DNA from: an uncultured bacterium
Lineage (GTDB): Bacteria; Verrucomicrobiota; Verrucomicrobiia; CAIQCK01
Direction of reading: 5' to 3'
NCBI GenBank assembly: GCA_903870275.1
Contig: CAIQCK010000103.1
Span: forward strand, 3,819-67,818
Length of the DNA: 64,000 nt
The position numbers were made by a program, and so were the translations under genes. Below the pieces are notes generated by a model. The model did not search any database. It was not told the DNA's origin and saw only the letters and a list, made by a program, of their open reading frames with translations. This document shows, piece by piece, positions 27,200 to 63,653 of the stretch (within the stretch, counting starts at the first letter, position 1; every line of letters begins with the position of its first letter).

Positions 27200-29605
27200 A
27201 TGAAGAAGTGGCTGAAGATTCTGTCTGTGGTATTGCTCGGGGCTCTAATGGCAACGGGCGCGTTCTTCGTCGCCAAACCGGCAAGGATGCCGGTGTTCCA
27301 ATCAACTTCTGTTTTCCGGCATTATCACACTTTGTGCGTGCCTTACCGCCGACCACCGGCGCTTGATGCGGCCGAAGCAACCCCCATATTGGAACACGCC
27401 ATCCAGCGAATCCGCCAGCGCCTCTTTAAAGCCCGCAATCGTTTGCCGGCACTGTCGGAAATAGACAAAGCAACAATCAAGGGATGTGACTTCACATATC
27501 GGAAAGGAGACGTCTCCCGCGATGAGACAGGCAAGCGGGTTTTTGATCCGCCGGATTCCTGCTACTTGTCCCTGCATGCCGAATATCCGTTCTGGGAATC
27601 AATGATGCTGTCAGTTGTTCCAAAGGAGTATTCAGTGTATGGGGATTGTTTTGCTGTCTACGCATCGGTAACTACGGAAACCGGTCAGTCCGAGATTTAC
27701 AAAATAATTCAGCAGGAAATGGACCGTGCAGTTGAAGAACTCCAAACGGCGGTCCGGTCCAAAATGCTCAAGGCAGGGGAAGGAATCTTTCTGGCCGTCA
27801 GAACCAGCGACGCCGCAAAGGTGGAGCAGTTCCTGGCCCGCAAACCCGAGTTGGCCAATGCCAAAGACACCCATGGGCTTGCGCCGCTTCATTGGGCACA
27901 AGACACGCGCGTTGCGGAGTTGTTGCTGGCGAAGAAAGCCGATGTTACCGCCAAAGACAACTTCGGTCTCACGCCCCTGCACTGGGCGGTCTATAATGGC
28001 CGCTTCGAACTCGTAAAACTGCTCGTCGCCAACAGGGCCGACATCAACGCCAAAACCACCGATGGCTGGACTCCCACGGACCTCGCCGAGGAACTGTACG
28101 GTGAAGCCGGGAAAGCAACGTCTTTTCTTCTCCAGCACGGCGGAATTCCTGGCCTGCCCGACGCAAGATTGATGGTAGTTCTTAGATGGCTCGACAAAAC
28201 GCACTTGAAGCGAGCGCTGCAAATGAAACCTAATTTCGTTGCCCTGAAGGACGAACAGGGGCGCACCGCACTGCATCACGCAGTTTTATCTCGCAACAGA
28301 GAAGCGGTGGAACTGCTTTTGAACGCCGGCGCGGATCCCAACATCAAGGACAATTATGGAAACACGGCAATATTGACGCCAAATGTCATGGTTGATCCAA
28401 AACTGCTGGAACTGCTGCTGACTCACAAGGCCGACCTCAACGTCATGGACGAGAAAGGCCGGACGCCTCTCGACCGTGCACTACTGGATCATGCATCAGA
28501 AATCGTCGCTCTTCTTCGCAAATACGGCGCCCAGAGAGGAGTAGAACCCCTTCGCAATACCATAATGCAACAAGACATGGGCGAACTGAAAGTATTGCTG
28601 TCATCCCAAACGGTTGACGTCAATAAGAAGGACCGTTATGGCAGTTATCCCGTTCATCTTGCGGTGTTTTACAAAAACATCGAAATGCTGAAGCTGTTGC
28701 TGGATCACAACGCTGATCCCAATGTCAGGGACAAAGAAGGTTATACATTGTTCCAAGTGTTCCTCGGATCCAAAGAAATGATGGCTTTGCTGATCGCCCA
28801 CGGAGCCGATGTTAACGCCAGAGACGGGTGGGGTGCCACGGCGCTTCATCATGCAGTCGGACTTATCAACAACAAGGAAGCCGTAGAGTTCCTCATTGCC
28901 AACAAGGCCGACGTCAACGCTGAAGACAAGAATGGCTGCACACCTTTGGATCGCGCATTTCGGCACAGCTCTAACCCGCATCACAGAATTGTGATTGATC
29001 TTCTTCGAGAGCACGGTGGCATATTCAAGAAATACCAGAAAGAAGCCAGCATCATGGAGTCACACCTCAAGAGACGGCAGTACATAATGGCTGGGATGCC
29101 TCTCTTTCCATACGGTTTAACAAACATAATTATTCGCCCGTTGCCGATAGTCCGCAAAAAAACATCGCTTACTCCTATTCAGGATATGGAGTTGCGGAAC
29201 ATGCCGGATGTGAAGGCCGCCAGCGAAGCACTGTCGGAAACTGGCAAAAAGTCTGCCAACGTGAGAAGAGCGACAATGTCCAAACTGGGATATCACATTG
29301 AGTCTCGCACTAATGGCACGTCGAATGTCGGGACAAGCGTATTCCGTGGGTGGTTTACTGCCGATGGGGAGCGGGTGACGACCAAGCAATTGACGGAATT
29401 CGACGATTTGCCGGACGTGAAGGCCAGTCGTGAAGCCACTGCACAAGCTGGCATGCTATACTGGGCAGTGAGGAGAGCAGCAACGACCACGCTTGTTAAT
29501 CAGACAGGTTATGGCACCAATCGCGCATCATCGGCGATTCAAGCACCGCCGGCGGGATCGGGCACGAATGGAGCGGTGCAGGTGAAGGGGAATGTGATGC
29601 GATGA
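27200..29605 (+). CDS. ankyrin-repeat protein with N-terminal signal peptide/TM and unknown N- and C-terminal domains (low-GC gene)
   Basis: 801 aa. About 10 or more ankyrin repeats (G.TPLHWA..NG....V.LLL..GAD.N). N-terminal hydrophobic segment (ILSVVLLGALMATGAFFVA). C-terminal region has an internal duplication (MPDVKAASEA / LPDVKASREA). GC visibly lower (about 50%). Confidence 0.85.
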   Translation: MKKWLKILSVVLLGALMATGAFFVAKPARMPVFQSTSVFRHYHTLCVPYRRPPALDAAEATPILEHAIQRIRQRLFKARNRLPALSEIDKATIKGCDFTYRKGDVSRDETGKRVFDPPDSCYLSLHAEYPFWESMMLSVVPKEYSVYGDCFAVYASVTTETGQSEIYKIIQQEMDRAVEELQTAVRSKMLKAGEGIFLAVRTSDAAKVEQFLARKPELANAKDTHGLAPLHWAQDTRVAELLLAKKADVTAKDNFGLTPLHWAVYNGRFELVKLLVANRADINAKTTDGWTPTDLAEELYGEAGKATSFLLQHGGIPGLPDARLMVVLRWLDKTHLKRALQMKPNFVALKDEQGRTALHHAVLSRNREAVELLLNAGADPNIKDNYGNTAILTPNVMVDPKLLELLLTHKADLNVMDEKGRTPLDRALLDHASEIVALLRKYGAQRGVEPLRNTIMQQDMGELKVLLSSQTVDVNKKDRYGSYPVHLAVFYKNIEMLKLLLDHNADPNVRDKEGYTLFQVFLGSKEMMALLIAHGADVNARDGWGATALHHAVGLINNKEAVEFLIANKADVNAEDKNGCTPLDRAFRHSSNPHHRIVIDLLREHGGIFKKYQKEASIMESHLKRRQYIMAGMPLFPYGLTNIIIRPLPIVRKKTSLTPIQDMELRNMPDVKAASEALSETGKKSANVRRATMSKLGYHIESRTNGTSNVGTSVFRGWFTADGERVTTKQLTEFDDLPDVKASREATAQAGMLYWAVRRAATTTLVNQTGYGTNRASSAIQAPPAGSGTNGAVQVKGNVMR

Positions 29606-31897: not shown

Positions 31898-31972
31898 TGG
31901 TGGGCGCTGTTGGGATTGAACCAACGACCCCTTGCGTGTGAAGCAAGTGCTCTCCCACTGAGCTAAGCGCCC
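31898..31972 (-). tRNA. tRNA-Val (anticodon CAC), CCA encoded
   Basis: Reverse complement GGGCGCTTAGCTCAGTGGGAGAGCACTTGCTTCACACGCAAGGGGTCGTTGGTTCAATCCCAACAGCGCCCACCA folds as a cloverleaf. Acceptor GGGCGCT/AGCGCCC, D-arm GCTC-AGTGGGA-GAGC, anticodon stem CTTGC/GCAAG with loop TTCACAC, T-arm GTTGG-TTCAATC-CCAAC. Confidence 0.85.
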
Positions 31973-32105: not shown

Positions 32106-33254
32106 TCAGACCGCCGGCAGCGTGAACCAGAACGTGCTGCCCTTGCCGACTTCGCTTTCCACACCGATCTGGCCGCCGTGCGCTTCGATGGCGAGTTTGC
32201 TGAACACCAGCCCCATGCCGACGGTGTATTGACGCAAGTTCTGTTCAACCACGCCGTATTTTTCGAAGATTTTCCCGCGAGATTCGGGGCGAATCCCCGA
32301 TCCCGTGTCGGTCACCGCCACGCGCGCCATGGCATGGTGCCGGCTCACGGTGACACGGATCCGGCCGTTGTCGGGAGACGCCTTGATGGCATTGCCAACC
32401 AGAGCGGCCAGCACCCGTTGAATGATCTCCTTGTCGGCGTTGGCCACGACCGGCTCCAGTTGCAATTCGACGCTCAGAAAACGCTCTTCCACCAGGGAGC
32501 CGATGGATTCCATGACCGCCTGCATCAAGACCGCGAGGTCGTAAGCCTGCCGGTTCAAAGGCAGTTCACCCGCCTCCAGGCGGCTGGCATCCACCAGCGA
32601 GGCAATCATGCCGACCAGCCTCTCCGTGTTCTGACGAATGCTGTCGAAATACCGCACCTCGGTGCTGGTGAGTTTTCCGGCGGTCTTCGCCTTGAGCAGG
32701 TCCAGATAACCCATCATCGCCGCGATCGGCGAGCGCAAATCGTGCGCGATCATATGAACCAGATTGTCGCGGAAGATTTCGAGGTCGCGGAGGTGAGTGT
32801 AGCTCATCTGCAGCTGCTGGTTTTGCTGCTCCAGATTTTCTTGATAGCAGCGGTTGGCTTCCGTCAGGCGCGCGCGCTCGTCTTCGGACGCCTTCAGCCT
32901 GACGGCGTTGCCCACGCAACGCAGGATCGTCTCCTTGGAAATCGGCTTGACGAGGTAGTCGAACGCGCCGGCCCGCACGGCGGCGGCGGCCGTTTCCACG
33001 GCGGGCTGGCCCGTGATCATGATGACCTGAATGCGCGGCGATTCTTTGTGAATGGCTTGCAGGAGTTCCACGCCCGTGATGCGGGGCATCACGATGTCGG
33101 ACACCACCACGTCATAGTTTTTGGACGGGAGCCGTTGCAGCACCGCGACGGTTGCATCCTCCGCTGTTTCCACTTCGTATCCCGCATCCCGCAGAAACTC
33201 TTGCAGCGTCAGGCGGATGCTTTTTTCGTCGTCCACAATCAATATGCGAGCCAT
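32106..33254 (-). CDS. hybrid response-regulator receiver / histidine kinase (REC-HisKA-HATPase)
   Basis: N-terminal REC (ILIVDDE...DVVVSDIVMP...LVKP), H-box MIAHDLRSPIAAM, C-terminal ATPase G-boxes (VTDTGSGI...GMGLVFSKLAIEAHGG). Confidence 0.85.
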   Translation of the reverse strand: MARILIVDDEKSIRLTLQEFLRDAGYEVETAEDATVAVLQRLPSKNYDVVVSDIVMPRITGVELLQAIHKESPRIQVIMITGQPAVETAAAAVRAGAFDYLVKPISKETILRCVGNAVRLKASEDERARLTEANRCYQENLEQQNQQLQMSYTHLRDLEIFRDNLVHMIAHDLRSPIAAMMGYLDLLKAKTAGKLTSTEVRYFDSIRQNTERLVGMIASLVDASRLEAGELPLNRQAYDLAVLMQAVMESIGSLVEERFLSVELQLEPVVANADKEIIQRVLAALVGNAIKASPDNGRIRVTVSRHHAMARVAVTDTGSGIRPESRGKIFEKYGVVEQNLRQYTVGMGLVFSKLAIEAHGGQIGVESEVGKGSTFWFTLPAV

Positions 33255-33266
33255 GCTTTCCTTTCG

Positions 33267-36200
33267 TTAGTCCTTGACGGGCAAATCCAGATGAAACCGC
33301 GTGTATAGCCCTGTTTGTGTCTCAAAGTGCAGTCCCCCTTGATGGTCTTTCGCGATGCCGTGGCTGATGGACAGTCCCAGACCCGTTCCTCCTTTTCCGA
33401 CCTTGGTGGTGAAGAAGGGGTCGAAAACACGGTCGCGGATTTCCCGAGGCACGCCGACCCCCTGGTCTTCAACGGTCAATCGAATCCAACGGCTTCCTTC
33501 CTTCTCCAGCGACCGGGCGGTGACGCGAATCGTCTTGTTTGCATCATGTTTCGGATACTTCTCGTTCAGCGCGTCGCGGGCGTTCGTCAGCAAGTTCAGA
33601 AACACCTGCTGGATTTGCTGGCTGTGGCACTTCACCTTGGGCAGGTCGGGAGGAACGTCCACGGTCAAGGCGATCTGGTCGTGCCGCATCACGGTCTGAA
33701 TGAGCCGGAGGACGGAGTTGACGATGTCGCTCATGTGCGTCCACTCGTGCTGCCGTTTGTCCTGCCGCGAAAAGGAGAGCAGGTTTTGGACGATCTGGGA
33801 CACGCGATCGGTTTCCTTGATGATCTCCGCCGCGTATTCCCGCAGGGGATTGTCCGCCGCCAGCCGGTCCACCATCAACTGCGCGTAGTTCATGATGCCG
33901 TTGATGGGATTGTTGATCTCGTGGGCGACGCCGCCCGCCAGCGTGCCGAGGGACTCCAGCTTTTGCGATTGGCGCAGTTGGGTTTCAAGCTCGGCTTCGC
34001 GCGTCACATCGAGCTTGAGGGCGATGTAGTTGACAATCCGGCCTGCTGCGTCCCGCACGGGGGAGATGGTGGCGTCCTCCTGGTAAAGCGTGCCATCCTT
34101 CTTTTTGTTGATCATGCGGCCATGCCAGACCTCGCCACGCGTGAGTGTCTCCCACATGTGCTGGTAGAACGCGGTGTCGTGTTTGCCGCTTTTGAGAACG
34201 CGCGGGTTCTGGCCAAGAGCCTCGTCGCGCGTGTAGCCGGTGATTTTCTCGAACGCCGGGTTGACATAGAGGATTGTGCCATGGGCATCGGTGATGACAA
34301 TGGTCTCGGCGGCTTGTTCCATGGCCGTGACCAGCCGCAGACGCTCCTCCTCCGCCCGCTTGCGCTCGGTGACGTCTTCCACAAATCCTTCGTAGAAAAG
34401 CACCCTGCCTTGCGAGCCCCGCGTGACGCGCGCGCTGGTGGAAACCCACATCGTGCTGCCGTCCTTGCGGTAGGCGCGGTTTTCAAATCCCCGCACTTCG
34501 CCCCGCTCTTCCAGTTGCCGTTGAAACTCCCGCCGGTATTCAGGGTGCAGGTAAAACTGGCGACCGATGTCCTGAACGGACGCCAGACACTCGGCGGGCG
34601 ACGCGTAGCCGTGCATGGCCGCGAACGCCGGGTTGACCGTGATCAACTTGCCGTCGGGCGTGCTCTGAAAAATGCCTTCCGCCGCGTTCTCAAAAATGCC
34701 GCGGTATTTCTCCTCCGCCTGGCGCAGTGCATCCTCCGTCCGCCGGCGTTCGGAAATGTCCCGGCTGACCCCCACGATGCCGACAAAGGCGTTCGTCTCG
34801 TCGAACATCCCGCTGTAGCCGACCTCGCACCATGCCGTCCAGCCATCCTTGCAGAGGTATTTGAGTTCGAGCGTTTCGCGCACGCGTTTGCCGGTCCGCA
34901 TCTGGGGGATCGTTTCGTCCAACTTCCCGCGAAGCGCCGTGGCGGAAGCCGCCACCAGCACTTGTTCCAAACCGCGCGACAGGACTTCCTCCGCCGTGTA
35001 GCCCAGCAACCGTTGAACCGAGGGACTCACGTAATTCAGCCGGCCCAACGTGTCCAGCGTCCAGATCACGTCGCTGGCGTTGTCGGCCAGCAACCGGAGG
35101 CGCTGTTCGTTCTCGCGCAACGTCTGTTCCATGAGCTTGCGCTCGCTGATGTCGCTCACCGTGCCCATCAGCCGGACCCGTTCGCCCTTTTCGTTGCGCC
35201 CGACGCGCCCCCGGACCGCAATCCAGCGCGGCGGCCGGCCCGGCCGGGCAATCCGGCACTCAAAACTGAGATGATCGGTGAACAGCGCCTGCGCAAAGCA
35301 ACGCTTGACCGGCTCAAGGTCTTCGGGCACGACATGCTTCAGGAGGATTTCGTAATTCCATTGGGATGGCGGGATGTCGTAGCCGAAAATTTGGTCGTGC
35401 CGCAACGTCCGCCAACTGGTGTCGCCGACCAAGTCCAACTCCCATGCACCCATCTGGCCTGCGTCCAGCGCGAGACGGAGCCGTTCCTCGCCTTGCTTCA
35501 ACTTCTCTTCAGCTTGTTTGCGCTCCGTCACGTCGTCGTAAACGGCCACCAACTCGCCCGACGGCAGCTTATAGACGTAATTTTCCCGCCACGAAACACT
35601 GCGACCCTGCTGGCGCAACGCACCGGAGTGCCGCTCGGGCACACCGGTTTTCCAAACGCGCCGGAACACGTCCAGCAACCCCATTTGCTGGACATTCGGA
35701 AACGTCTTGGCGATGCCTTTCCCAAGCAGTGCCTCCTTTTTCACGTTTTCGATCTGCTCGGCTGCCGTGTTAAAATCCTTGAAAATAAAATCCTCGCCGC
35801 TTCCCCGGACTTCGTAAACCGCGACGCCGCTTTTGATTCCGTTGAACAACTCCCGGTATCGTTTTTCGTTCTCGGCCAGTTGTTGCTCCGTTTGCGCGAG
35901 CTGCTTGCGATTCTGCGCCTCCTGCAAGGTCCGCCGCACGGCCGGCCCCAAACGGTTCAGCCTGTGCTTGAGCACGTAATCGGTCGCCCCTTGGTGCAGC
36001 GCGTCAATGGCGGTTTCCTCGCCAAGGTTGGCGGAAACGAAGATGAAGGGCACTTCGGGGCGTTTCTTTCGCGCAAGCTTCAGGGCGGACAGGCCGTCGT
36101 AGGACGGCAGGGAGTAATCGGCCAGAATCAGGTCCAGAGCCGGGTTCCGCAACCCGGCGGCAAAATCCGCCTCCGTCCAGACGCGCCGCACGCTGCACCG

Positions 36201-36356
36201 GATGCCTTCGCGCTTCAGTTCGCGCATCACCAGTTCGGCGTCGGCGGGGCGGTCTTCGAGGTTGAGTATCTGGAGTTCCTCGCTCACGGCTTGGCGGTGG
36301 GAAAGCGCACTCCGGATGGACGTTCCGGCGGCTGGTTCAACAACAGCCAGTAACAT
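33267..36356 (-). CDS. REC-(PAS)n-HisKA-HATPase sensor histidine kinase
   Basis: REC domain ([10 protein letters not shown]...LILADYSLP), about 5 PAS/PAC modules, H-box [13 protein letters not shown], HATPase (DQGVGVP...[10 protein letters not shown]). Possible GTG start at 36285-36287 overlapping the upstream gene stop (GTGA); ATG 36354-36356 is the alternative. Confidence 0.85.
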
Positions 36357-36760
36357 CCCAGTTGCGCGACAGCTTCGGAAAAGTTGTCGAAGTTCACGGG
36401 CTTGACGATGTAGCTGTTCACGCCCAACTCGTAACTGCGTACGATGTCCTGCTCCTCGCGAGAGGAAGTGAGCACCACCACCGGGATGGTCTTCACGGAG
36501 TTGTCGGACTTGAGCTTGCGCAAGACATCCAGACCGTCCACCTTGGGCAGCTTCAGGTCCAACAGGATGATCTTGGGCCGGTTGCGCACCCGGCTGTTTC
36601 CGCCGCGAGGACCAAAGATAAACTCCAGCGCCTCTTCGCCGTCCTTGACCCAGACTAGTTTGTTGGTCAGGTTGCGTTTCTTGAGCGAGCGCATGGCCAG
36701 TTCGGCGTCGCGCGGATTGTCTTCAACCAACAGGATTTGAACTTCGCTATTTGTGCTCAT
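36284..36760 (-). CDS. stand-alone response regulator receiver (CheY-like)
   Basis: [13 protein letters not shown]...[13 protein letters not shown]...NSYIVKP; start ATG 36758-36760 overlaps the stop of the upstream kinase (ATGA). Confidence 0.85.
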
Positions 36761-39700
36761 GGTCGTCCCTTTCTTACCGGCAGTGAGAAACAAAACATCG
36801 CGCCCTCGTTGAGAGTTGCCTCCGCCCGGACGCGGCCGCCGTGGCGGTGGATCACGCGCTGGACAATGGCCAGCCCGACACCCGTGCCCTCGAACTCAGC
36901 GTCGCCGTGCAACCGCTGGAACACGCCGAAGAGTTTGCCCACATATTTCATGTCGAAGCCGACGCCGTTGTCCTTCACGTAGTAGAGATGCTCCGAGCCT
37001 TCCGCACGGCCTCCGATCTCAATGATCGCCGTCTCCTTTGGACGGGTGTATTTGATGGCGTTGGAAATGAGGTTTACCCACACCTGGCGGAGCATAGCCC
37101 AGTCGCCCTCCGCCGGCGGCAGCGGATGAAGTTGGAACTGGATCTGCCGGCCCGTCGCCCGGGCCGCGCACTCGTCAAAGACCGCCTGAGCCAACCCGCC
37201 CATGTCAATCTCCACCGCATCCAAGGACTGGCGCCCCACCCGCGAAAACGCCAGCAGATCGTCAATCAACTGGCCCATGCGCTTGGTTTCGTCGCAGATG
37301 ATGTCCACGGTCCGCCGGCCTTCCTCGCCGAGTTGCTTGACATGGTCTTCCACCAGGATGTTCGCGAAGCCGTTGATGGCCCGCAGCGGCGCGCGCAAGT
37401 CGTGCGACACCGAGTAGGAAAACGCCTCGAGTTCCTTGTTGGCCGCCTCCAGTTGGGCAGTGCGCTGGATAACGCGCGTCTCCAGTTCGGCGTTGAGGGT
37501 GTTGATTTCCTCCTCCGTCCGCTTGCGCTCGGTGATGTCGCGACCCACAACCACCGATCCGACAATCGTACCGTCTTTGTCGCGAATAGGGGCGAAACTG
37601 TAGCTGCCCACCCACGTTTCGCCCGTGTCTTTGCGTCGCAGCACATGCTCCACATTGGTGGCCGTTTCGCCCCGGAGCGCTCTTGGAACCGCCCACTGAT
37701 CCGACGGCACCGGTTCGCCATTGGTCATGAATACGTCCAGAATCGCGTTGTAATCAGCCAGGATTCGACTGCATTGATCCTTGCTCTTGAACTTATGGAA
37801 CGTCGCGAAGGCGTCGTTGAACTCGATAAACCGCCCCTTGGAATCGGAAATAAACACGGCATCGGTCATGCTGGACATAGCTGCCTGCATTTTCGCCCGG
37901 CTCGCCAGCATCAGTTCCTCGGCCTGTTTGCGCGCGCTGATGTCACGCACAATGACTTGCGCGCCGGGCTTTCCCTCAAAGGTGAACGGCATGGCCCCCG
38001 CCTCCACGTCCACCACGCTGCCATCCAGTCGCAGAAACTGCTCTTCGATGATGGGAAGCGGCTCCGGGTTTCTTTCCATGGCCGCCATGCGCTCCAGAAC
38101 CTCCTGCCGGAACCTTGGGTGGATGAAATCCAAAATGAACTTGCCAAGCAGTTGTTCCGGCCGATCCGCGCCGAAAAGTTTCAGGCCGGCCGGATTGATG
38201 TAAACAAACTTCCGGTCCGAGGAGATGAAAATGGTGTCCGGAGACGACTCCACCAGCCGGCGGTAACGCTCCTCGCTTTCCCGCAGACTCTGTTGGCTCA
38301 GCCGATAGGCGATGGCTACCGCCAGATTGTCGGCCAGCCGCTCCAGCAACGCGACGCGTTCCGGCGTGAAACGCCCTTTGCGCTTGTCGTTGATTTGCAA
38401 CAGTCCGCAGGTGGTCTGGCTCGTGCGCAACGCCACGAGGGCTACCGATTCATAGCCTTCGCCATTGCAACGATTGCGCGTGCGGCCCTGGCGGTCGGCT
38501 TCCGTGGTGCCGGCCAGGAGTTCGGTGGTGGAATTGGTCCAAAAACTGCCGCGCGCGGTGAAGAACGGCTTCGTGCGGTTGAACCGTCCGCAGATCACGT
38601 TGCCGCACATGCAATCCAACACGGGATGGCCGTCGCTGTCCTGCAACGGCCGGCCCTCCGCGTCGTGCAGGCACAGTTTGTCTTCCGCGCGGACAAATTC
38701 CGCCGGAAACCCGCGTGTCTCAAAATACGGATAGTCGCCGTCCTCGCGCAGCCGGATGCCCACGGCATCGCAGTCGAGCCACTCCTTCAGCAACAGCGTC
38801 GAGTCCCGCAACAACTCGCGCAGGTTGCTGGCGGCGTTGAACACCCTGAGCAAATGCACCGTGATCTCGCGATCTCCTTCCAATCGCTTGCGTTCTGTGA
38901 TCACGTCGAACACGGCCACGAAGTGTTCCTTGGCGGGGCTATACACCGCGATTTCGAACCAGTCCTGCAGGCCCTCCACATAAACCTCGAACCGCTCCGG
39001 CACGCCGGTCGCCGCCACACGACCGTAGGTTTCAAGCAACTTTGGGTCGGCCTCGCGAATGCCGGGGATGATTTCGGTGATTTTCCGTCCGACGACATTC
39101 TTCAAGCCGGTTAGTTTTTCAAAAGCGTCGTTGACAGCCAGATAGACGAAGTCCTGCGGCCGGCCTTCCTCGTAAATCATCCGGCAATAGGCGAAACCGT
39201 TGAGCATGTTCTCGAACAAGAAGCGGTATTTCTCCGCGCTTTGCCGCGCCAGCTCCTGCGCCTCCTTGCGCTGGGTGATATCGCGGATGATGGCCAGCCC
39301 GCAGCGGACGCCGCCGACCTCCACAAACCGGTCGCTGCTCTCCACCGGGAACGTCGTGCCGTCCTTGCGCCGGTGGACGGTTTCAAACATGGCGGTGCTG
39401 TCGCGTTCCAGCCGCCAGACTTGTTGCGCGGCATCCTCGTGAGCCTCTGGCGCGCGCAAGTCAGTTAGCCGCATCCGCAGCAGTTCGGCCCGCGAATAAC
39501 CGTAGCTCTCCACGGCACGGTCGTTGGCTTCGAGGATCTTCCACTCCTTGTCGGTCAGCAGGATGATGTCGTTGGCGTTTTTCATCAGGTGCTCGATGCG
39601 CTGGGCCATCGCCACCCGCTCCTGCTCGACCCACAACTGGCGTCGCAACAAATTCACATCGTGCCGCCGCCAGAGCATCGCCACGCTGAGGCAGACGACG

Positions 39701-41385
39701 ACGGCCAGCAATCCCATCCCGCCCCAAACGGTTTGGGCCTGCCGCCGCAACTCGGCATAAATTTCGTCCCGATCCACCTTCGCGATCATGAACCAAGGCG
39801 TATCGGGAACGGCGCGGATGACGGCCAGCACCGGCACGCCGCGATAGTCCGCGCCCTCCACGCGGCCGGTCTCGCCCCGCGCCGCCATCGCCGCCGGCAA
39901 ATCTTTCTTGCCGATGGGCATTCGCAACGCGAGGGCAGTGTTTGTGCGATGGCGCAGTTCGCTCAGAAACAGCACGTCCCCGCCTTCGCGCCGCACCAGC
40001 AGCGTCTCTCCCGTCCGACTCGGCGTCGGCCACTCTCGCAACAGCGGATAGAGAAACCGCTCCGGGTCCACCTCCATGTCAATAGCGCCGATGGCTGGGC
40101 CGCCGTTCGCCGCGAGAATTGGCACCGCGAGGTCGAGATGGATATCTCCGTTGAACCGGCTGCGGTGCAGGTCGGACATGACAACCTCGCTCGAGCGCAT
40201 GGCTTGCTGCGCGTAGCTCACGCCGATGGGGCCAACACCGGTTCTCTCCGAGGGAGAAACCAGAAGCACCCGGCCCGTCGCGTCCGTCAGCGCCACGCAC
40301 AAAGCCTGGTTGTGTTCCCTCAAGGCGTCGAGCCATTGCGTCAGCCGTTCGGGCGAGATGCTGTTGGTCGAATCCTTGAGAAAGTGATTCATCGCCTCGA
40401 TCATGAAGGGATTCAGCAGCCAGGAGCGGGCGTCGCCGAGGCGTTCGGCGCGCCAGTCCACGATCTGCCGCACCTTCAAGTCCGCAATGGCGGTCACGTC
40501 GCCCATCGCGCTCTTGCGCGCCAGGGTGTCCAGATGATTGAGGAAGAAGAAACCGGCGGCCGCTGTCGCCGCGACAACAGACATCAATGCCGCTAGCAGC
40601 GTCAGGCCGAAACTCCGCCGTGACGGCAACGCTGACGCGGCCTGGCCGAACACCATTTGCAACGGCCATCGGTCCAGGCCCGCGGCAAACAAGAGGCCCG
40701 CGCCCAGCAACGTCAACGCAACGGCCGAGGCCGGCGCCATGGGAATCCAGTCGCTTTCGTGAAGGATGGACACGCCCATCGCGTAGCCGAGAATCGCCGA
40801 AAGGCCCAGCAACGTCACCATCAACGCGAATCCGGCGGCCAGTTGTCGAAGCTCCCGCCACCGGCCTATCGGCGGCAGTTGCGTCAGCAACGCCAGCGCC
40901 GCCACCAACAATCCCCCCGCGCTCATCACGGATATCCGACCCACCGGCACGCCGCCGACCTTGGCATGAACGTCCGCCAGCCAGCGTTCGAGGCTGGGGA
41001 TGGCGCCGCTCTCTTTCGTCAACGCCAGCAGACAGAACGCGACCACAGCCAACGCCGCCAGATAAGCCGCTGCTATCGGAACCCAACGCGACGGCCAGCG
41101 GTGGCGCAGGAACAACGCGCCGCTGAGCAGGACTGTCAAGCACGCCGTCAACGGCGCCATCGGCACATGCTCGTCGCCGAATGCGCCCCACTGCCAGCGG
41201 CCACTCCACCATGAGACCATCGCCAGCGCCGCGATGCCCGCCGCGCCAAACGCGCCCCACGCCACCGCGCGGCGCTGAATGATCTGCTGTTTGGAATCCG
41301 CGTTCACGCTCGTTGGCCGTAGTAGCAGTTCGTGGGCATCCCTGGACCGCGAGCGGTCTTCCACCAGGATATCATGGCAGTCCAC
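36757..41385 (-). CDS. giant membrane sensor histidine kinase (multi-TM N-terminus, periplasmic sensor, multiple PAS/GAF, HisKA, HATPase)
   Basis: 1542 aa. About 10 TM segments in the first about 330 aa. Repeated PAS-like modules, H-box [20 protein letters not shown], HATPase G-boxes (DNGVGFD...GTGVGLAIV). Confidence 0.85.
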
Positions 41386-41706
41386 GCAATGTGCGCGATC
41401 CTCCCTGAACTGCTGGCGATTCTCCCCGAACGCCTCAGGACACAGCTTGGCCCCCGCCCGCTGATTTCATCCTCCCTCATCGTTGGATTGATAACACAAT
41501 CCACGAAGGAAAAACTAGTTATGGCTCGCCTTGACTTCATTGCCACCCACCAACGCACAACTTTGCCGTTGTGCATGCCCATTCAAAACGACAGCTACGA
41601 ATGTCACCTCGGTTCAGCATGACCTTCCGTGCGCAGGCTAATACTCTTAACACCCTTCTCCTGACAGCGCTAGTCAGGAACCCGCCGACAGGGTGTAGGA
41701 ATTATC

Positions 41707-42381
41707 CTACACGGCGGCACTGGGCGGGGTCTGCCCGGTCAACTGGTGACGGATGGCATAGTGGATCAGGTCTGTTGTTGTTCGTAGATCCATCTTCTTC
41801 AACAACCGCGCACGGTAGGTGCTGACCGTCTTCTCACTCAAGCCCAGTTCCGCCGCGATGGTTTTGCCGGAACCGCCGGCCACGATGCGGTGCAACACTT
41901 CGAATTCGCGGTTGGAGAGATTCTCGTGGGGCAACAGCGTGCGCGCGCCCAAACTGCTCGCCAGCCGTTCGGCGAACGAGGAACTGACGTAGGTGCCACC
42001 GGCCAGAATCCTCCGCACCGCGTCGGCAAGTTCCTCCGGCGCGCGCTCCTTGGTCAAATACCCCGCCGCGTGAAACTTCAACGAGCGCATGGCGAATTGG
42101 TCTTCGGGGTGCACGCTGAAAACCAACACCGGCAACTCCGGGCGTCTTTGTTTGACCTCGCGCAGCACGCTCAAGCCGTCACGATCCGGCAGCGAGATAT
42201 CCAGAATCAGCAAGTCCCACCGTTCCCTGCCGAGTTGCCGCAGCGTCCCGGCGGCGTCCGCCGCCTCGCCAAAGACCGCGCCCCGAAACTCTTCCTTCAG
42301 AATCTGTTTGATGCCAAGCCGCGTGGTGGCGTGGTCGTCGGTAATCAGGATGCGGAGCGGTTTGCGGGCAGGTTTTTTCAT
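41707..42381 (-). CDS. NarL/FixJ-family response regulator (REC + LuxR-type HTH)
   Basis: RILITDDH...LLILDISLPDRDG...SVHPE, and C-terminal LSNREFEVLHRIVAGGSGKTIAAELGLSEKTVSTYRARLLKKM. Start ATG 42379-42381 overlaps the kinase stop (ATGA). Confidence 0.9.
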   Translation of the reverse strand: MKKPARKPLRILITDDHATTRLGIKQILKEEFRGAVFGEAADAAGTLRQLGRERWDLLILDISLPDRDGLSVLREVKQRRPELPVLVFSVHPEDQFAMRSLKFHAAGYLTKERAPEELADAVRRILAGGTYVSSSFAERLASSLGARTLLPHENLSNREFEVLHRIVAGGSGKTIAAELGLSEKTVSTYRARLLKKMDLRTTTDLIHYAIRHQLTGQTPPSAAV

Positions 42382-43649
42382 GAATGCTTCAAGGGAATCG
42401 CAACCCGGACGGTGGTGCCTTCGCCGGGCGCGCCGTGAATGATCACCTCGCCCCCAAACTCGCGCGCCCGCTCCCGCATGCCCAGCAGGCCCACGGCGCC
42501 GGCGTCGGCCATCTCCCGTGACGAGATGCCGCGGCCGTTGTCCGACACTTCCATCACCGCCCGACCGGCTACGGCCCGCAGCCGCGTGCGAACGCGCGTA
42601 GCTCCCGCATGGCGCGCGACGTTTGCCAGAATCTCCTGGAAGATGCGGAACATCGCCGTGGACCGGCCCGTGTCGAGCACCATTCCCTCCGCCGGCAAGT
42701 CCAACTCGCACTCGATGCCGCTACGCTCTTCAAACTGTTTCGCCCCCCACTCCATCGCCGCCACAAAACCCGACGTGTCCAGCACGGCGGGCCGCAACTC
42801 GGTGGAAATCCGCCGCGCCGTGTTGAGATCGCTTTCGACGCGCTTCATCATCGTTGCAATCCGCCGGCGCACGCCGGACTGGCCCGATTGCTTTTTCTCA
42901 TCCAACCGCCGGTCCAGCCATGCAAGGTCGAGTTTCAAATCCGTAAATGCATGGCCCATTTCGTCGTGAATTTCGCGGGCGATCCGGGCGCGCTCTTCCT
43001 CGCGAACGCTTCGCAGCCGGGCCGCCAGCGTCCGCAACTGTTCCCGCGAGGTCAGCAACCGTTGTTCGACCTGTTTGCGCTCGGTGATGTCGCGAATCGC
43101 GGCGACATGAATGCCGCGCCCCCGGCTTGTGAAATAGCTGCCCGCGATTTCCACCGGGAACACCGTGCCGTCCTTCTTGCGGTGCCAGCGGAGCGGAACA
43201 CTGGTTTCGCGCGCGGCGATGGCTTGCCCGGTTTTTTCCGGTTCCGCGGACATATCGGTCGGTTTCAACTTCAGAAATTCCTCACGACTGTAGCCGTAGA
43301 GCCGGGTCGCGGCGGCGTTGGCGTCCAAAACACGGCCCGTCTCGCCGTCAATCATGAGAATCGCATCGGACTCGATTTCGAACAGCCGGCGATGCCACTC
43401 TTCGGACTCGGCCAGTGCCTCGCCGTCCGGCTTGCGCCCGGCGATTTCGCGCTCGTCCGCCACCCATTTCTCCCGCTGCCGGCCCAATTCCACCGCCACC
43501 GCGTCCAATTCTCTCATCGCCTCGATCAAGTGCCGCTGCGTCGCGGTCTCTGCCGGTTGTTCATCCGGCGCGGCGTCCCACCTTTCCCGTAAAGCCGCCA
43601 GATGCCGCCGGGCTGCCTCGATGCGTTGGTTGATCAGTTTGTCACTCAC
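42378..43649 (-). CDS. PAS-containing sensor histidine kinase (NarX/LiaS-type; HisKA_3 + HATPase)
   Basis: PAS (ILMIDGETGRVLDANAAATRLYGYSREEF), HisKA_3 H-box EEERARIAREIHDEMGH, HATPase (SDNGRGI...GLLGMRERA...GEGTTVRVAIP). Confidence 0.85.
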   Translation of the reverse strand: MSDKLINQRIEAARRHLAALRERWDAAPDEQPAETATQRHLIEAMRELDAVAVELGRQREKWVADEREIAGRKPDGEALAESEEWHRRLFEIESDAILMIDGETGRVLDANAAATRLYGYSREEFLKLKPTDMSAEPEKTGQAIAARETSVPLRWHRKKDGTVFPVEIAGSYFTSRGRGIHVAAIRDITERKQVEQRLLTSREQLRTLAARLRSVREEERARIAREIHDEMGHAFTDLKLDLAWLDRRLDEKKQSGQSGVRRRIATMMKRVESDLNTARRISTELRPAVLDTSGFVAAMEWGAKQFEERSGIECELDLPAEGMVLDTGRSTAMFRIFQEILANVARHAGATRVRTRLRAVAGRAVMEVSDNGRGISSREMADAGAVGLLGMRERAREFGGEVIIHGAPGEGTTVRVAIPLKHS

Positions 43650-43958
43650 ATGTTCAGTTTTGTCAGACGCAGGCCGTCGCCTGCTATCGCCGTTTATACT
43701 GTGGCCGATAATTTGCTCCTTTTTCCAGTGTCAAATGCCCATGACCCTAAAAACTTTCCCCGGTATTTCCCGTTGTCAGCCTGTTGAAACGGCGTAGTCT
43801 GTCCGCCGGCATCGGACGGCGCAATTGGCGAGAGGAGCTTTTCTTCGTTTGAGCCGTCTAATGCCGTGGTGACCCACATGAACTTCAGACCTGGAAACCG
43901 AAGTTGCGCGGGCAAGGATGCCGGTGCCACGGTCAACTTCAGTTTTCGGGTCAAACCC

Positions 43959-46900
43959 ATGACGCCCATGAACATATACACTCAATTCCTTGCCGCGCTC
44001 GCGGCGATAACCCTCCTCTCTCCAACCGGCGTCGCACTCGCCGACAACGAAATCGGCTTCATCGAACGCTTCGCCCTCGCGCCCGACCGCGAAAAGGCGC
44101 TCAGCGAACTCGTGCCCGGCAGCGAGGATTTTTATTACTACCACGCGCTCCATGTCCAGAACGCGCGCGACACCGTCAAACTTGCCGACACGTTGACGCA
44201 GTGGAAAAAGCGGTTCCCCAACTCCGAGCGGCGGTGCGTGATCGAGAACCGCGAGGCGCTCATCGGCTACGAAACCAATCCGCAAACAACGCTGGCGTAT
44301 CTGCGCGAAAAGCTGAGCCTGCATTTCAACCACGTGCAGGAGGCCCGCGACAAAAAACCCGATCTGCCCTCCTCGCTCGACCCGAAACGCATCGCCCGCG
44401 GGGTCTTCGAGAAAGATTCGCTCACCCACGACGGCGGCATGCAAAGCTTCTCCCAAACCGCGCTGGAGGATCTGGTAAAACGCCAAGCGCCGCTCGATGA
44501 ACAGCGCCGCCGCGCTCTGCTGGCGAAGATTCACCGTCCCGATGTGTCACATCTGGTCGAGGTGATCGTCGCCGATTTGAAATGCAAGGAGTCGCGCGGC
44601 TTCGGCGAGTTTGCGATTCACCGCGCATTGTTACCCGACCAACTCGACGCGCTTGTCCGGGCACTGCCGGCGCTGGCGGTGAACGAGGCGTTCGTGTTAA
44701 CGCGACTACGCAAGCTCGCGCCGTCCGCCGATGCCGACATCGAGTTCGGCACCGCCGAGCGCGAGGCGTGGCTGGAGCGCGTGTGGAACTACACGAAGAC
44801 GCTGCCGCCGGCCTTCAACGCGCTGAAAGCTTGCGTGCTTTATCAGCGGCTCGACCACGACCGCAAAAAGAGCGTCTATAACCACGAGCGGTTTCTCGAA
44901 TACGTCAAGCTGCCGCGCAGTTTCTTCTACGTGAACCCGCTCTGGCTCCGGAGCCGGACGCAACTTGGCGAGCCGGTCGCCGATCTCAACATTAGCTTTG
45001 CTGACCCGCTGCCCGGCGTGCGGCCCGTCGGCATGGACGAACCGCTGGTGCGCGATTATTTCGTGCATCTCTTTGCCGCCAACGGCAAGGCCGACAGCGA
45101 TGCCCATGCGCTGCTGTCGCCGTGGACCGATTACATTCGCGAGTCGTGGCTCAAACCGATCCTCGCCGAGGCGATGATCCTCCACGGCATCGGCGACCCG
45201 GAACGCTGGGCGTCGCTGCTCGCGCCCTCGGAATTTCAGCGGTTGAAGGAACGCGTGGACATCGAGTTTCCGCCGACCAACACCCCGTTCACCACGCCCG
45301 GCGCCGACGTGGCGATGGATGTGATCCTCAAAAACACGCCGAAGCTGCTCGTCCGAATATACGAAGTCAACGCCCTGAACTTTTTCCTCGTGCAACACCG
45401 CCAGCTCAACACCGACCTCAACCTCGACGGCCTCGTCGCCAACAGCGAACGCACGCAGACGTTCGACGCCGGCCCATTCAAGCGCGTGCGGCAGACCTTC
45501 AAGTTTCCCGAACTCCGGGGCCGGCGCGGCGCGTGGATCGTGGAGTTCATCGGCGGCGGGCGCAGCAGCCGGGCGCTGGTGCGCGTCGGCCAGTGGCAGT
45601 TACTCCAGCAAACCGGCCCCGGCGGCGATCTGCTGACCGTGCTCGACGAACAAGGCGAGCCGGTGAAGGACGCCGTCGCGTGGCTCGACGGACGGAAGTT
45701 CACGCGCGACGAAAAGCTCGGCCGCATCAACGTCCCGTTCACCCAACAGCCCGGCCGCGCCAACATCGTCATCTCGGACACGGCCGGCACGTTCGCGACG
45801 CTGACGCAGTTCGAGCATCACGCCGAGGACTACCGGCTCGACGCGCAATTTCACGTTGAGCGCGAACAACTACTGGCCCGGCGCGAAGCGACTCTCGCGG
45901 TGCGCACAACGCTCATGCTCGGCGAATCACACCTCGACCCGGCGATCCTCCGCGAGCCGAAGCTCGCCATCACCACGACCACGCTCGACGGCATCTCCAC
46001 AACGCGCGAGGTCCAGGACGTGAAACTGACCGCCGCGCACGAGTTAACGCATACGCTGACGGTGCCTGAGCGGCTGGCGCAACTCCAAGTGACACTCAGC
46101 GGCAAGGTGGACGTGCTCAGCGAGGGCGGCGCCAAGCGCGACTTGAGCGCGTCGCACACGTGGAACATCAACGGCATGGACAAGACCGACGCGATTAGCG
46201 ACGGGCATTTGTCAAAGTTCGGCGGCGATTACGTCTTCGAGTTGCTCGGCAAGAACGGCGAACCGCTCGCCGACCAGCAGGTAGTGTTTGCGTTCACGCA
46301 TCGTGATTTCAGCCGGCCGCAGCACATCGCGCTCAAGACCAATGAGCGCGGTCGCATCGCGCTCGGCCCGCTCACTGGTTTGCGCAGCGCGCGCGCCAAG
46401 TGTCCGAACAATCGCGAGAGCACGTGGGCGCTCGCGGACTTCGAGCGGACGTGGCCCGGCGTGATTCACGCCCGCGCCGGCGAGGCTATCCGGGTTCCGA
46501 TGCCGCTGCACTCGCGAGAGTTCTCGCTGCTCGAAACCCGCGCCGGAACCTTTGTCGCCGACTGCACCGCGCAGATGAAACCCGATGGCGAATTCCTGGT
46601 CATCCCGGCACTGGCCGCCGGCGATTACTCGTTGCGCTTCCGCAACGACAATCGCGAACTCACGGTCAAAATCACCGACGGCAAACCCAGCGCCGGGTGG
46701 TTCCTCGGCAAAAACCGACAACTTCAGGCGAAGAACACCGCGCCGCTCCATATCACCGGCGTGAGCGTGGAAAAAGATGTCATCGAAATCAAACTGGCGA
46801 ACGCCTCGCCGTTCGCGCGCGTCCATGTCGCCGCGTCGCGGTTCGAGCCAGGGCGCGGATTGTTTGGGGGACTAGCCGGCTTTGCGCGATTTGGCGCGGC

Positions 46901-49900
46901 TGAGAGTGCGCCCGCGAAGCAGCCAAACCTTTACGCCGGCGGCCGCGAGATTGGCGACGAGTATCGCTACATCCTCGAACGCCGCAACGGCCGCGTGTTT
47001 CCGGGTAACATGCTCACGCGCCCCGGCCTGTTGCTCAATCCGTGGGAGACGCGAGACACCGGTCTCGCGGAACTCGAACAAAGGGCCGGCGAAATGGCCG
47101 GGGCCACAGCGGGTAATCGCGCCATGTCAAGATACGGCGGCGGCATGGTCGGCACTCCCAACGTGATGGCCGCAGCCGGCGCAGTTGCGGACAGCGATCT
47201 CGATTTCCTCGCTGCGAGCGAGCCGGTGATTTTCAATCTGTTGCCGGACAAGAACGGCGTTGTGCGCGTCGCGCGCGAGGCGCTCGCCGACCGCCAACAC
47301 GTGCAGGTCTATGCGGAGGATCTCGACGACGCCGTCTGGCGCTCGTTTGCGCTGCCGGAGGCGGGGACCAAGTTCACGGACTTGCGGCTCGCGCACAATC
47401 TCGACCCGGCCAAACCGTTCGCGCAGAAAAAGGAAATTGCCGTGCTCAAGCCGGGCGGGGCATTTGCGCTGACCGACACGCTCACCGGCGAACTCGAAAC
47501 CTATGACACGCTCGGCAGCGTGTACGCGCTTTTCACGACGCTCAGCGGCGACGGCAATCTCGCAAAATTCGCCTGGCTGTTGCAATGGCCAAAGCTCGGC
47601 GACGAAGAACGGCACGCGAAATACGGCGAGTTCGCCTGCCACGAGTTGAACTTTTTCCTGTGGCGCAAAGACGCGGCGTTTTTCGAGAAGACGGTGCGGC
47701 CGTATCTGGCCAACAAGAAGGACAAGACGTTCATGGATGACTTCCTGCTCGGTAACGATCTGGCGCGCTATCTCGAACCGTGGGCCTACGCGCGGCTCAA
47801 CGTCGTCGAGCGCGCGTTGCTGGCCCAGCGCGCGAAAGGCGAAGCCGCCAATGCCGCGCGGCATCTGCGCGAGTTGTGGGAGATGGTGCCGCCCAATCCC
47901 GACGAGCAAGACCGCTTGTTCGAGACCGCGTTGCGCGGCCGGGCGCTGGAATCCTTGATCAAACTCGGGGCGGGGACTTTGATCCTCAATGGTTCCAACT
48001 CCTACGCAGGCGGCGTCGTCATCAATGCCGGCAACCTGTCAGTGACGGTGGCAGGAGGAGGTGCACTCGCAACCGCGCCTCTTCCGCCACCCGGCGCCGC
48101 CGCGCCGGCCACTCCCGCTCTCGTTGTGACGAAAGATGCGCGTCACCTCTCTTTTCGTGCCGATCAATTGGAGACGCTGGCGGAGAAGGCCCCAGCAAAA
48201 CAATCGCCCAAAAACCTCAGGGTACCGATGGAAGTTCGGGCTATGGCAGAACAACGCCACGCCATCTTCAAAAAAGCCGGTCTTGCCATGGATGGGGAAG
48301 AAGGTGTTTTGAGAGACAAAAGCGAATCCGGTCGTTGGGGCTACTTCGGCGCAGACGCCACCAAGCACGCCCGCGGCGAGGGGCGCGCCTATTACCGCCA
48401 GCTCGGCGCGACCAAGGAATGGGCGGAGAATAATTACTACAACCTCCGCATCGCGCAGCAAAATGACAGTCTCGTCGGCATCAACGCCTTCTGGCGCGAC
48501 TACGCCCAGTGGGTTGCCGACGGCGCGAAAGCCCCGTTCGTCTCCGCCAACGTCGCGGAAGCGCACAATGACTTCGCCGAGATGATGCTCGCGCTGGCCG
48601 TGCTCGATCTGCCGTTCGAGGCGCCGAAGCACGCCTCCCAAGTCACGAATCACGAATTACGATTCACAGCCGCCAGCCCGGTCATCATCTACCACAAGGA
48701 AATCAAACCGACCGCGCCCGCCGCCGCGCCGCAGGCGGAACTGCTGGTCTCGCAAAGTTTCTTCCGCCAGGGCGACCGTTACCGGCAGGAAGGCAACGAG
48801 AAGTTCGAGAAATACGTGACGGAGGAATTTCTCGCCGGCGCCGTCTATGGCGCCAACATCGTCGTCACCAACCCGACCAGCGCACCGGTGAAGGCCGAGG
48901 TGCTCCTGCAAATCCCGCAGGGCGCGTTGCCGGCGCTCGGCAGCAAGAACACCGATTCGCGCCGGCTGCGGTTGGAGCCTTACACGACCCAGACCTTCGA
49001 GTATTGTTTTTACTTCCCCGCCACGCCGGCCAAGCCCAATGAAACATTCGCCCACTACCCCGTCAACATCGCCGTCGCCGGCCACTGTGCGGCGGCGGCC
49101 CGGCCGTTTGCGTTCAACGTCGTCGTCAAGCTCTCGCAGATGGACAGGGCATCGTGGGATTATCTCTCGCAATACGGCAGCGAGGCGGAGGTCTTCGCGT
49201 TCCTCAACCAGAACAACGTCGAGCGGCTCGACTTCGAGCGCGTGGCGTGGCGCTGCCGGCAGAGCGTGGATTTCTTCCGGAAACTGACGGGGTTCATGCA
49301 GGTCCACCACGTCTGGAACGAAACGGTTTACAGTTACGCGGTCGTTCACAATGACACGCCGGCGTTGCGCGAGTGGCTGCGGCACAAGGACGAGTTCCTG
49401 GCGAACTGCGGCCCGTTCCTCGCCTGCAAACTGGTCGTGCTCGATCCGATCGAGCGGCGCGCTTACGAGCATCTGGAATACTCGCCGCTGGTCAACCAGC
49501 GCGCGCACCGGCTCGGCAACGAGTGGCGCATCGCCAATCCCGCCGTGCGCGACCAATACCTGCGGCTGCTCGACATCCTCGCGCACAAGTCCGCGCTCGA
49601 TGCGATGGACAGCATGAGCGTGACTTATTATTTGTTCCTGCAAGACCGTGTCGAGGAGGCGCTGGCGCGATTCAAGACGATTGACCCGAAACAACTGCCG
49701 GCGCGCGTGCAGCACGATTACTTCCGCTGCTATGCCGGTTTCTACGAAAGCAACCTGGCCGACGCGCGCGCCATCGCGACCGGCTACCGCGACTTCGCCG
49801 TGCCGCGCTGGCAGAAACTTTTCGCCGAGGTCGCCCGGCAGCTCGATGAGATCGAGGACAAAGCCGTCGTCGCGTCGAAGAAATCCGCCGATGACAAACC

Positions 49901-53222: not shown

Positions 53223-53230
53223 GGGATGCC

Positions 53231-55657: not shown

Positions 55658-55719
55658 GGGTCACCTCGATACGAGCATCACCGCTGCGGTTATCAATGCG
55701 AGTCGGTTCATAAGTGCCT

Positions 55720-57192: not shown

Positions 57193-57369
57193 ATGGCTGC
57201 CTTCATTTTATAACGAACGGTTGCCGATCCGCTTCACCGGTGCAGCCGCCGTTGTTGAGTCCAAGCATTGTGTGTCCGGAGCGCCCGCATGAACTTGTTG
57301 TCGTGTATGCGGCCATCTGTGTTCATCCGGGAATCTGTCAATGATCAGGAGTTGTGACCCCACGCGAAG

Positions 57370-63609: not shown

Positions 63610-63653
63610 GTCACTGTCCTGACGTGGAAACAGGGGTTGGTTACAAAGTTTTT

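Follow-up and report, generated by a model that had tools for sequence, protein, structure and literature searches.

The locus described here is a run of two-component signaling genes on the minus strand of a 64-kb window, by which we mean the whole stretch of 64,000 nucleotides (nt) analyzed from a contig of an uncultured member of the Verrucomicrobiia. Four open reading frames (ORFs) form its core: HK1 (36757-41385), a membrane sensor histidine kinase whose ORF spans 1542 amino acids (aa); REC2 (36284-36793), a single-domain response regulator; and HK3 (33267-36356) and HK4 (32106-33254), two kinases with N-terminal receivers. As the original prediction had it, these minus-strand genes are tightly packed, overlapping or abutting, and end at a tRNA-Val gene, and both the coordinates and the junctions were borne out when the sequence was read directly: the TGA of HK1 and the ATG of REC2 share ATGA at 36757-36760, and the TGA of REC2 and the GTG of HK3 share GTGA at 36284-36287. 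Read from these codons, REC2 (36284-36760) has 158 aa and HK3 (33267-36287) has 1006 aa; the same HK3 start, GTG 36287, is used in gene calls on identical metagenome contigs (1006 aa) and agrees with the N-terminus of the ortholog in a related locus, L095. The spacer from the HK3 TAA to the HK4 ATG measures 12 nt (33255-33266, CGAAAGGAAAGC), not the 13 bp counted earlier between 33254 and 33267, and contains an AAGGA-like ribosome-binding site. The tRNA-Val(CAC) gene (31898-31972, minus strand; found by ARAGORN, 69.3 bits in Rfam) lies 133 nt downstream of the stop codon of HK4 (382 aa). HK1 most likely starts at GTG 41307, with a predicted product of 1516 aa, because its similarity to every relative starts at residue 27 of the ORF.

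Two further genes adjoin upstream on the same strand. HK6 (42378-43649), the first gene of the array, encodes a PAS-HisKA_3-HATPase_c kinase of 423 aa that is predicted to be soluble, and RR5 (41707-42381) encodes a NarL/LuxR-type regulator of 224 aa consisting of a receiver and a GerE helix-turn-helix domain; the stop codon of the first and the start codon of the second share ATGA at 42378-42381. These six are the only two-component genes in the window. The locus is made of two translationally coupled units, HK6-RR5 and HK1-REC2-HK3-HK4, with 320-400 nt between them (41308-41706; 399 nt when measured to GTG 41307 and 321 nt when measured to GTG 41385), and the promoter for the downstream four genes probably lies in this gap.

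Domain annotation with Pfam and NCBIfam, which included a count of PAS and GAF modules, upheld the earlier inventory of one single-domain receiver and three histidine kinases, of which two begin with a receiver; all three kinases are intact. HK1 has a weak dCache_1 match, four PAS domains (Pfam, TIGR00229), one GAF domain at aa 855-1025, HisKA, and HATPase_c; HK3 has a receiver, five PAS domains (as TIGR00229 stretches), HisKA, and HATPase_c; HK4 has a receiver, HisKA, and HATPase_c; and REC2 has Response_reg alone. The H-box, N, G1, and G2 motifs of the kinases and the Asp, Thr/Ser, and Lys of the receivers are present throughout the four proteins. They include His1328 of HK1 (in SHDLRAPL), the acceptor Asp68 of REC2, and D58, VLKH, and the G2 box GTGLGL of HK3. 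In HK4, the receiver carries VVVSDIVMP (with the acceptor Asp53), MITGQ, and LVKP, and the kinase carries AHDLRSPI (with His171), NAIK, DTGSG, and TVGMGL, this last G2 box being the sole slight departure from the expected motifs; the 45-residue linker between its receiver and kinase is charged and has no inserted domain. The H-box of HK6 reads EIHDEMGH. The possibility that these are pseudokinases was dropped because the catalytic motifs are all present. No Hpt domain was found in HK1, REC2, HK3, or HK4 (no Hpt family among Pfam matches at E <= 0.01) or in HK6 or RR5 (E <= 0.001), a search that did not extend to stand-alone Hpt genes among the other window proteins. A classical His-Asp-His-Asp phosphorelay of the ArcB, BarA, or Spo0 type was rejected since the proteins scanned have no Hpt domain. 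The same absence, which the original prediction had noted, is the reason to regard signaling as multi-step or branched, as it had proposed; the LvrA to LvrB pathway and the pathway from BphP1 to AgR and ExsG behave in this way.

The six-gene order is conserved in three related contigs (L099; L100, from GCA_016235595.1; and L101), each with a HisKA_3 kinase, a REC-GerE regulator, a gap of 300-413 nt, a large sensor kinase, a single receiver of 156-159 aa, a receiver-PAS/GAF kinase, and a Rec-HisKA-HATPase kinase. In all three, the HK4 ortholog is followed by tRNA-Val(CAC), which is thus a conserved end-marker of the array, and by GT9 and GT4 glycosyltransferase genes; L100 and L101 go on to an ankyrin protein, FabF-ACP-FabG, and ExbD, and the contig of L099 stops earlier. 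The window's own FabF protein belongs to a 90%-identity cluster whose name comes from Verrucomicrobiia MAGs. Identity to the window is highest in L099 (HK1 73%, REC2 87%, HK3 66%, HK4 77%, RR5 84%, HK6 63%) and lower in L100 and L101 (HK1 62-67% over the core only, REC2 73%, HK3 51%, HK4 62%, RR5 33-36%, HK6 31-32%). By sequence, the four-gene core is orthologous in all three contigs, and the NarL-type pair is kept in position but not strictly in sequence. Beyond these loci, clusters of HK4 orthologs number in the dozens in Verrucomicrobiia (55-77% identical, all 374-382 aa). One further locus, L095 (GCA_016222825.1), has HK1, HK3, and HK4 orthologs alone (58-69% identical, with 69% for HK1), joined by a 4-bp overlap and a 3-nt spacer and preceded by unrelated genes. 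The sensor portions of the kinases vary in length among these loci. The HK3 ortholog of L099 (8111-9988) has 625 aa and fewer PAS domains, those of L100 and L101 (7227-10004) and of L095 (14152-16926) have 924-925 aa with GAF domains, and HK1 orthologs range from 1255 to 1506 aa; the sensor array of HK3 is plastic while its receiver and kinase core stay conserved, with orthologs 51-66% identical.

Characterized relatives of these proteins work in kinase-to-kinase pathways. In NCBIfam, HK1 matches LvrA best and HK3 matches LvrB best. The transmitter of HK1 (36772-37428) has its best solved matches in 8F71 (E 3e-45) and the bacteriophytochromes 8UPH and 9YS3 (E 5e-34), and REC2 has its best in 5BRJ (AtRR1/AgR; E 6e-44) and 5IC5 (E 2e-43), with 1K68, 1I3C, and 1K66 (RcpA, Rcp1, and RcpB) at about 1e-25 and RtBRR also among the best solved relatives. 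REC2 is, by these matches, assigned to the Rcp1/AgR (phytochrome-regulator) family of single-domain receivers. A phytochrome is not found beside it: Pfam identifies no PHY or PAS_2 phytochrome domain in HK1, and HK1 was rejected as a phytochrome on that account, its transmitter alone being phytochrome-like. The kinase core of HK3 matches LvrB (8VC9) at E 1e-54, and for its receiver LvrB is the only solved-structure match at E <= 1e-12 (E 5e-27). Both parts are judged homologous to LvrB from these similarities, although HK3 falls below the cut-off of the LvrB family model NF047466 (368.7 vs 500 bits) and has its five PAS domains between the receiver and DHp. HK4 combines an NtrC-like receiver with an HK853/phytochrome-like core in the solved-structure search. 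HK3 and HK4 share two features of Rec-controlled kinases, an N-terminal receiver with its acceptor residues and a full C-terminal DHp and CA core.

The closest parallel in gene order is the agp1(bphP1)-agR-exsG(-exsF) operon of Agrobacterium and Rhizobium NT-26, which encodes a kinase, a single receiver, and a receiver-kinase (PMC1552090). There, BphP1 phosphorylates both AgR and the ExsG receiver, ExsG then phosphorylates the single-domain receiver ExsF, and the ExsG kinase is inhibited by phosphorylation of its receiver (PMC3899027); Agp1 phosphorylates AtRR1, and 5BRJ is the cognate regulator of Agp1 (PMC8292422). The likeness extends from gene order to the homology of REC2 and AgR and to the phytochrome-type transmitter of HK1, and a branched pathway without Hpt was demonstrated in that system. 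HK1 differs in lacking the phytochrome photosensory module and in having seven transmembrane (7-TM), dCache, PAS, and GAF sensor regions instead; the core of ExsG is of the HWE type, unlike the LvrB-type HisKA core and five PAS domains of HK3; and the window has a third kinase, HK4. In Leptospira, LvrA phosphorylates LvrB (PMC5863495, PMC13269768), and phosphorylation of the LvrB receiver is activating, freeing the catalytic domain, after which LvrB phosphorylates LvrC, a partner that is not encoded adjacently (PMC13269768). The Lvr genes, like those of the window, are adjacent and co-oriented and form a kinase-to-kinase cascade without Hpt (here a proposed one), and HK4 shares the exact Rec-DHp-CA layout and the size of LvrB (382 aa, against 382 residues in the 8VC9 chain). 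They differ from the window in that LvrA is a soluble, fused kinase and Rec-kinase and the output is a Rec-anti-sigma protein encoded elsewhere, whereas in the window the single receiver is a protein of its own and a NarL-type pair lies next door. The Ralstonia phcBSRQ operon encodes a sensor kinase, a Rec-kinase that lacks a DNA-binding domain, and a protein that is a receiver only, with a separate output regulator (PMC8578825). Compared by description and not by sequence, it resembles the window in having kinase, receiver-kinase, and receiver-only genes in one operon. The differences are a gene order with the Rec-kinase ahead of the single receiver, a gene for a signal synthase, and the lack of a second Rec-kinase. 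A further two-tier kinase case is, reportedly, KipF to PakF.

On balance, we consider it somewhat probable that the four-gene unit encodes a kinase cascade without an Hpt protein, set within the conserved six-gene locus, a reading drawn from sequence comparison. HK1 would sense through its 7-TM region, periplasmic dCache domain, four PAS domains, and Cys-rich GAF domain and would autophosphorylate on its phytochrome-type transmitter, and its phosphate would pass along two branches, one leading to REC2 and the other to the HK3 receiver, which is of the LvrB type. The pairing of HK1 with REC2 is favored because the transmitter and REC2 match a characterized type of cognate pair; REC2 might serve as an adaptor, hub, or phosphate sink. 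The phosphorylated receiver would turn the HK3 kinase on or off, with the five PAS domains of HK3 giving extra inputs, and HK3 would control HK4, the minimal Rec-DHp-CA kinase, likewise. The proposed wiring, in which HK1 feeds both REC2 and the receiver of HK3 and HK3 acts on HK4, is suggested by homology together with the conserved coupling of the genes. The end of the cascade would then phosphorylate a response regulator with an output domain, for which RR5 is the best local link: it might be a phospho-acceptor of HK3 or HK4 or, with HK6, a transcriptional controller of the four-gene unit.

In an alternative that we consider improbable, the kinases form no linear cascade and REC2 is a hub: three kinases, each sensing separately through its PAS, GAF, or Cache array, would converge on it, and it would act by protein-protein interaction or pass phosphate on, in the manner of Caulobacter MrrA or Bacillus Spo0F. 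The receivers fused to HK3 and HK4 would then provide feedback or a sink. No gene of the array is more conserved than REC2 (73-87% identical vs 51-77% for the kinases), which has 4-bp overlaps on both flanks, and single-domain receivers are described as integrating hubs (PMC5964349) and as relays and sinks (PMC8578825); the phosphorylation of ExsF by ExsG also fits such a role. Against it, L095 has the three kinases without REC2, the receivers of HK3 and HK4 keep their phospho-acceptor residues, and the homolog of the HK3 receiver in LvrB is an activating one.

Where the output of the cascade lies is bound up with the NarL-type pair. Pfam identifies PAS_9, HisKA_3 (2.5e-11, above the gathering score), and HATPase_c in HK6 and Response_reg (6e-24) and GerE (7.8e-18) in RR5, and the two form a NarL/FixJ-type pair, a HisKA_3 kinase beside a REC-GerE regulator with a 4-bp overlap. 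Since the same six-gene order and tRNA recur in the three related contigs, RR5 is counted as a locally encoded, predicted DNA-binding regulator. The original prediction had held that there is no output-domain regulator and that the output is not encoded locally; this part of its interpretation was not supported, given that RR5 and the HisKA_3 kinase HK6 adjoin upstream on the same strand, and its view of the coupling, the kinases and receivers, and the lack of Hpt stood.

The proposed cascade and its link to RR5 have to be set against several observations that weigh on the other side. HisKA_3 kinases usually pair with NarL-type regulators, and HK6 is for that reason the expected cognate kinase of RR5; it lacks a receiver that would let the cascade act on it. 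The gap of 300-413 nt before HK1 suggests separate transcription units. The NarL-type pair of L100 and L101 is only 31-36% identical to that of the window, vs 51-73% for the other four genes, and the HisKA_3 kinase of these two loci bears CHASE8-HAMP-PAS sensor domains; because the pair is so much less identical, its adjacency may reflect position and not a fixed partnership. Neither REC2 nor the NarL-type pair is indispensable, since the three-kinase operon of L095 has neither. LvrB is outside the 60 best solved-structure matches of HK4, which is not a close sequence relative of it. The sign of receiver control also differs between the model systems, being activating in LvrB and inhibitory in ExsG.

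Several of these observations would suit a relay complete in itself, its output regulator being encoded at another site (the situation of LvrC with LvrB and of PhcA with Phc), with HK6 and RR5 as an independent neighbor, an explanation that we regard as rather unlikely though not negligible. The separation of the two units by the gap, the divergence of the pair in L100 and L101, and the unrelated upstream genes of L095 are all consistent with it, as is the nonadjacency of LvrC and LvrB (PMC13269768). So are two further loci, L091 and L093, in which a sensor kinase, a single receiver, and a receiver-kinase form a triad that has no NarL-type pair. What speaks against it is the persistence of the pair: a HisKA_3 kinase and REC-GerE regulator stand in the same position and orientation in 4 of the 4 related loci that share this chromosomal context, in Bacteroidota, Ignavibacteria, and Gammaproteobacteria such pairs adjoin homologous Cache-kinase cassettes, and the nearest relatives of RR5 are terminal genes of homologous cascades.

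These distant cassettes came from 24 loci of many phyla anchored on the dCache region and annotated by phmmer, and from further contexts annotated with Pfam. The triad occurs in eight loci (L006, L011, L013, L016, L091, L093, L097, and L098), its genes mostly overlapping by 4 bp or set apart by short spacers, and the single receivers of L006, L011, L013, L016, and L019 are 44-55% identical to REC2. HisKA_3/REC-GerE pairs stand beside a Cache kinase in L011, L012, L013, L019, L020, L021, L027, and L028, of which all but L019 account for the three phyla named above. RR5 is 38-57% identical to the REC-GerE genes of homologous cassettes in other phyla, and its closest metagenome relatives (43-57%) are mostly the last gene of cassettes in the order kinase, receiver, receiver-(PAS)-HisKA_3 kinase, REC-GerE (L031, L038, L039, L045, L047, L048, L049, L051, and L055). 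The kinase cores of these cassettes are 44-55% identical to that of HK1, their single receivers are 49-54% identical to REC2 in L045, L047-L049, L051, and L055 and 38% in L031, and the receiver of HK3 is 46-48% identical to the fused receivers in L038, L039, and three short contigs (L030, L032, and L041). Because the cassettes that end in RR5 relatives carry homologous cores and receivers, the six genes of the window are homologous parts of a single recurrent cascade ending in a NarL-type regulator. The window has these parts in a different arrangement, and its HisKA_3 kinase has no receiver.

A perfect inverted repeat with 7-nt arms, TGTAGGA-N4-TCCTACA (41694-41711), lies across the RR5 stop codon, has one exact copy in the window, and might serve as a NarL-type operator or form a small hairpin. 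L099, whose RR5 is 84% identical to that of the window, retains the repeat (TGTAGGAAAAATCCTACA); L100 and L101 do not. Such a site would suit a scheme, in our view very unlikely, in which HK6 and RR5 act upstream, with RR5 binding the gap (for example at the palindrome) to switch expression of HK1-REC2-HK3-HK4 and the phospho-output of that operon lying elsewhere. The same-strand gap of conserved size between the units is in keeping with this scheme, and so is the palindrome, being unique in the window and kept with a closely similar regulator but not where the regulator differs. On the other hand, the palindrome lies across the RR5 stop codon, over 300 nt away from where HK1 starts, could be a hairpin, and has no second copy upstream of HK6, and no sigma-70-like or terminator-like site was found on the minus strand of the gap (the promoter scan used the sigma-70 consensus only). 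No repeats are common to the two intergenic regions. The RR5-HK1 gap matches no Rfam family (Rfam matched the tRNA only), and it holds no remnant of a receiver gene, although in several distant cassettes that place is taken by a small receiver gene.

The N-terminal part of HK1 holds the one modest novelty of the locus, the 7-TM module. Hydropathy gives eight hydrophobic segments, seven at aa 40-281 and one at aa 553-571, and not the roughly ten transmembrane segments first estimated; an AlphaFold model built from 56 sequences (pLDDT 88.9) agrees, with seven helices, then a periplasmic domain, then an eighth transmembrane helix (TM8, 39673-39729). The periplasmic domain (aa 286-552, 39730-40530) scores 16.9-19.3 bits against dCache_1 (PF02743), below the 45-bit Pfam cut-off. 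Foldseek matches its model to the dCache domains of PctA, Mlp24/37, Tlp3, and KinD with probability 1.00, E about 1e-8, and target-normalized TM-scores of 0.66-0.74, and the domain as modeled is a double-Cache fold between two transmembrane helices. The cytoplasmic sensor array (37516-39603) comprises PAS1-PAS2 (aa 595-840), the GAF domain, and PAS3-PAS4 (aa 1035-1290). In the GAF domain, a Cys-rich insertion (aa 900-995, 38401-38688) runs from KLCLHD to RNRCNG and includes five cysteines, at 905, 925, 927, 932, and 973; its core, CMCGNV(I/L)CGR, is kept in two distant homologs (P0046 and P0064), and the insertion could be a redox, metal, or cofactor site. In the homologous-protein search, the 120 matches listed were all 991 aa or shorter, with no full-length HK1 ortholog among them.

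The 7-TM module (aa 37-285, 40531-41277) has no match among Pfam or NCBIfam models and no solved structural counterpart that we could find. An alignment built from sequences cropped to this region (A3) reveals one motif, PM(A/S)xxTA, repeated three times at the starts of TM2, TM4, and TM6, with the family consensus forms YVPMAPSTA, GRMSPLTA, and IPMALLTA. The copies in HK1 of the window include WIPMAPASA; in its second copy (GRISVMSA), Ile replaces a Met that is otherwise at least 90% conserved in the family. The region finds 1204 cluster representatives at E <= 1e-3, and of the best 150 representatives, 95 have a dCache-like domain after it. In architecture, it resembles MHYT (PF03707; CoxC), which is also an N-terminal seven-transmembrane domain with a short motif repeated in TM2, TM4, and TM6, each copy with a conserved Met. 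The MHYT motifs lie near the periplasmic face (PMC11347149); those of HK1 would likewise be at periplasmic helix ends, a placement resting on an inferred N-in topology. The module was rejected as an MHYT member, having no PF03707 match even at E <= 10 and motifs without the conserved His or Tyr, and the relation is best treated as an analogy and not as demonstrated homology. The module may represent an undescribed MHYT-like family of membrane sensors with at least 1200 cluster representatives, making it a candidate new sensor domain; its three conserved methionines might be a binding site for a metal or for a small ligand, either hydrophobic or a gas.

Overall, the locus is a well-conserved member of the known Rec-controlled and phytochrome-type kinase-receiver-kinase cassettes, ordinary for an environmental phylum rich in signaling. 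It extends this type by a second Rec-kinase and by the positional link to a NarL-type system, and it fits known schemes and leaves current understanding unchanged. The four-gene unit may form three tiers, from membrane sensor kinase to Rec-PAS kinase to minimal Rec-kinase, which, if true, would be one deeper than LvrA to LvrB, BphP1 to ExsG, or KipF to PakF and would show bacteria chaining kinases to integrate many signals without Hpt. The fuller proposal, a three-tier cascade maintained throughout Verrucomicrobiia and linked by position to a NarL-type system, together with the 7-TM module as an undescribed MHYT-like sensor family, is a tentative one that we hold more doubtful than likely. Rec-controlled kinases are common yet barely studied, and the mechanism of LvrB was described only in 2026. 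The locus offers a compact, conserved test case in which an LvrB homolog with a PAS array, a minimal Rec-kinase, a phytochrome-type pair without a phytochrome, and a candidate DNA-binding end point stand together.

Divergent from HK6, on the plus strand, lies a gene for a protein of 2241 aa (43866-50591) whose sole Pfam match is one PATR (autotransporter-associated) repeat. Beyond it, a minus-strand run of genes for large repeat and eukaryote-like signaling proteins (50748-63951) includes WD40 beta-propeller proteins of 824 and 808 aa, one HEAT-repeat protein of 490 aa, and a protein of 2193 aa that joins Ser/Thr protein kinase and FGE-sulfatase domains. On the other side of the array, an ankyrin-repeat protein of 801 aa is encoded on the plus strand (27200-29605) downstream of the GT9 and GT4 glycosyltransferase genes, and an ankyrin protein of a different length stands at the same position in L100 and L101.

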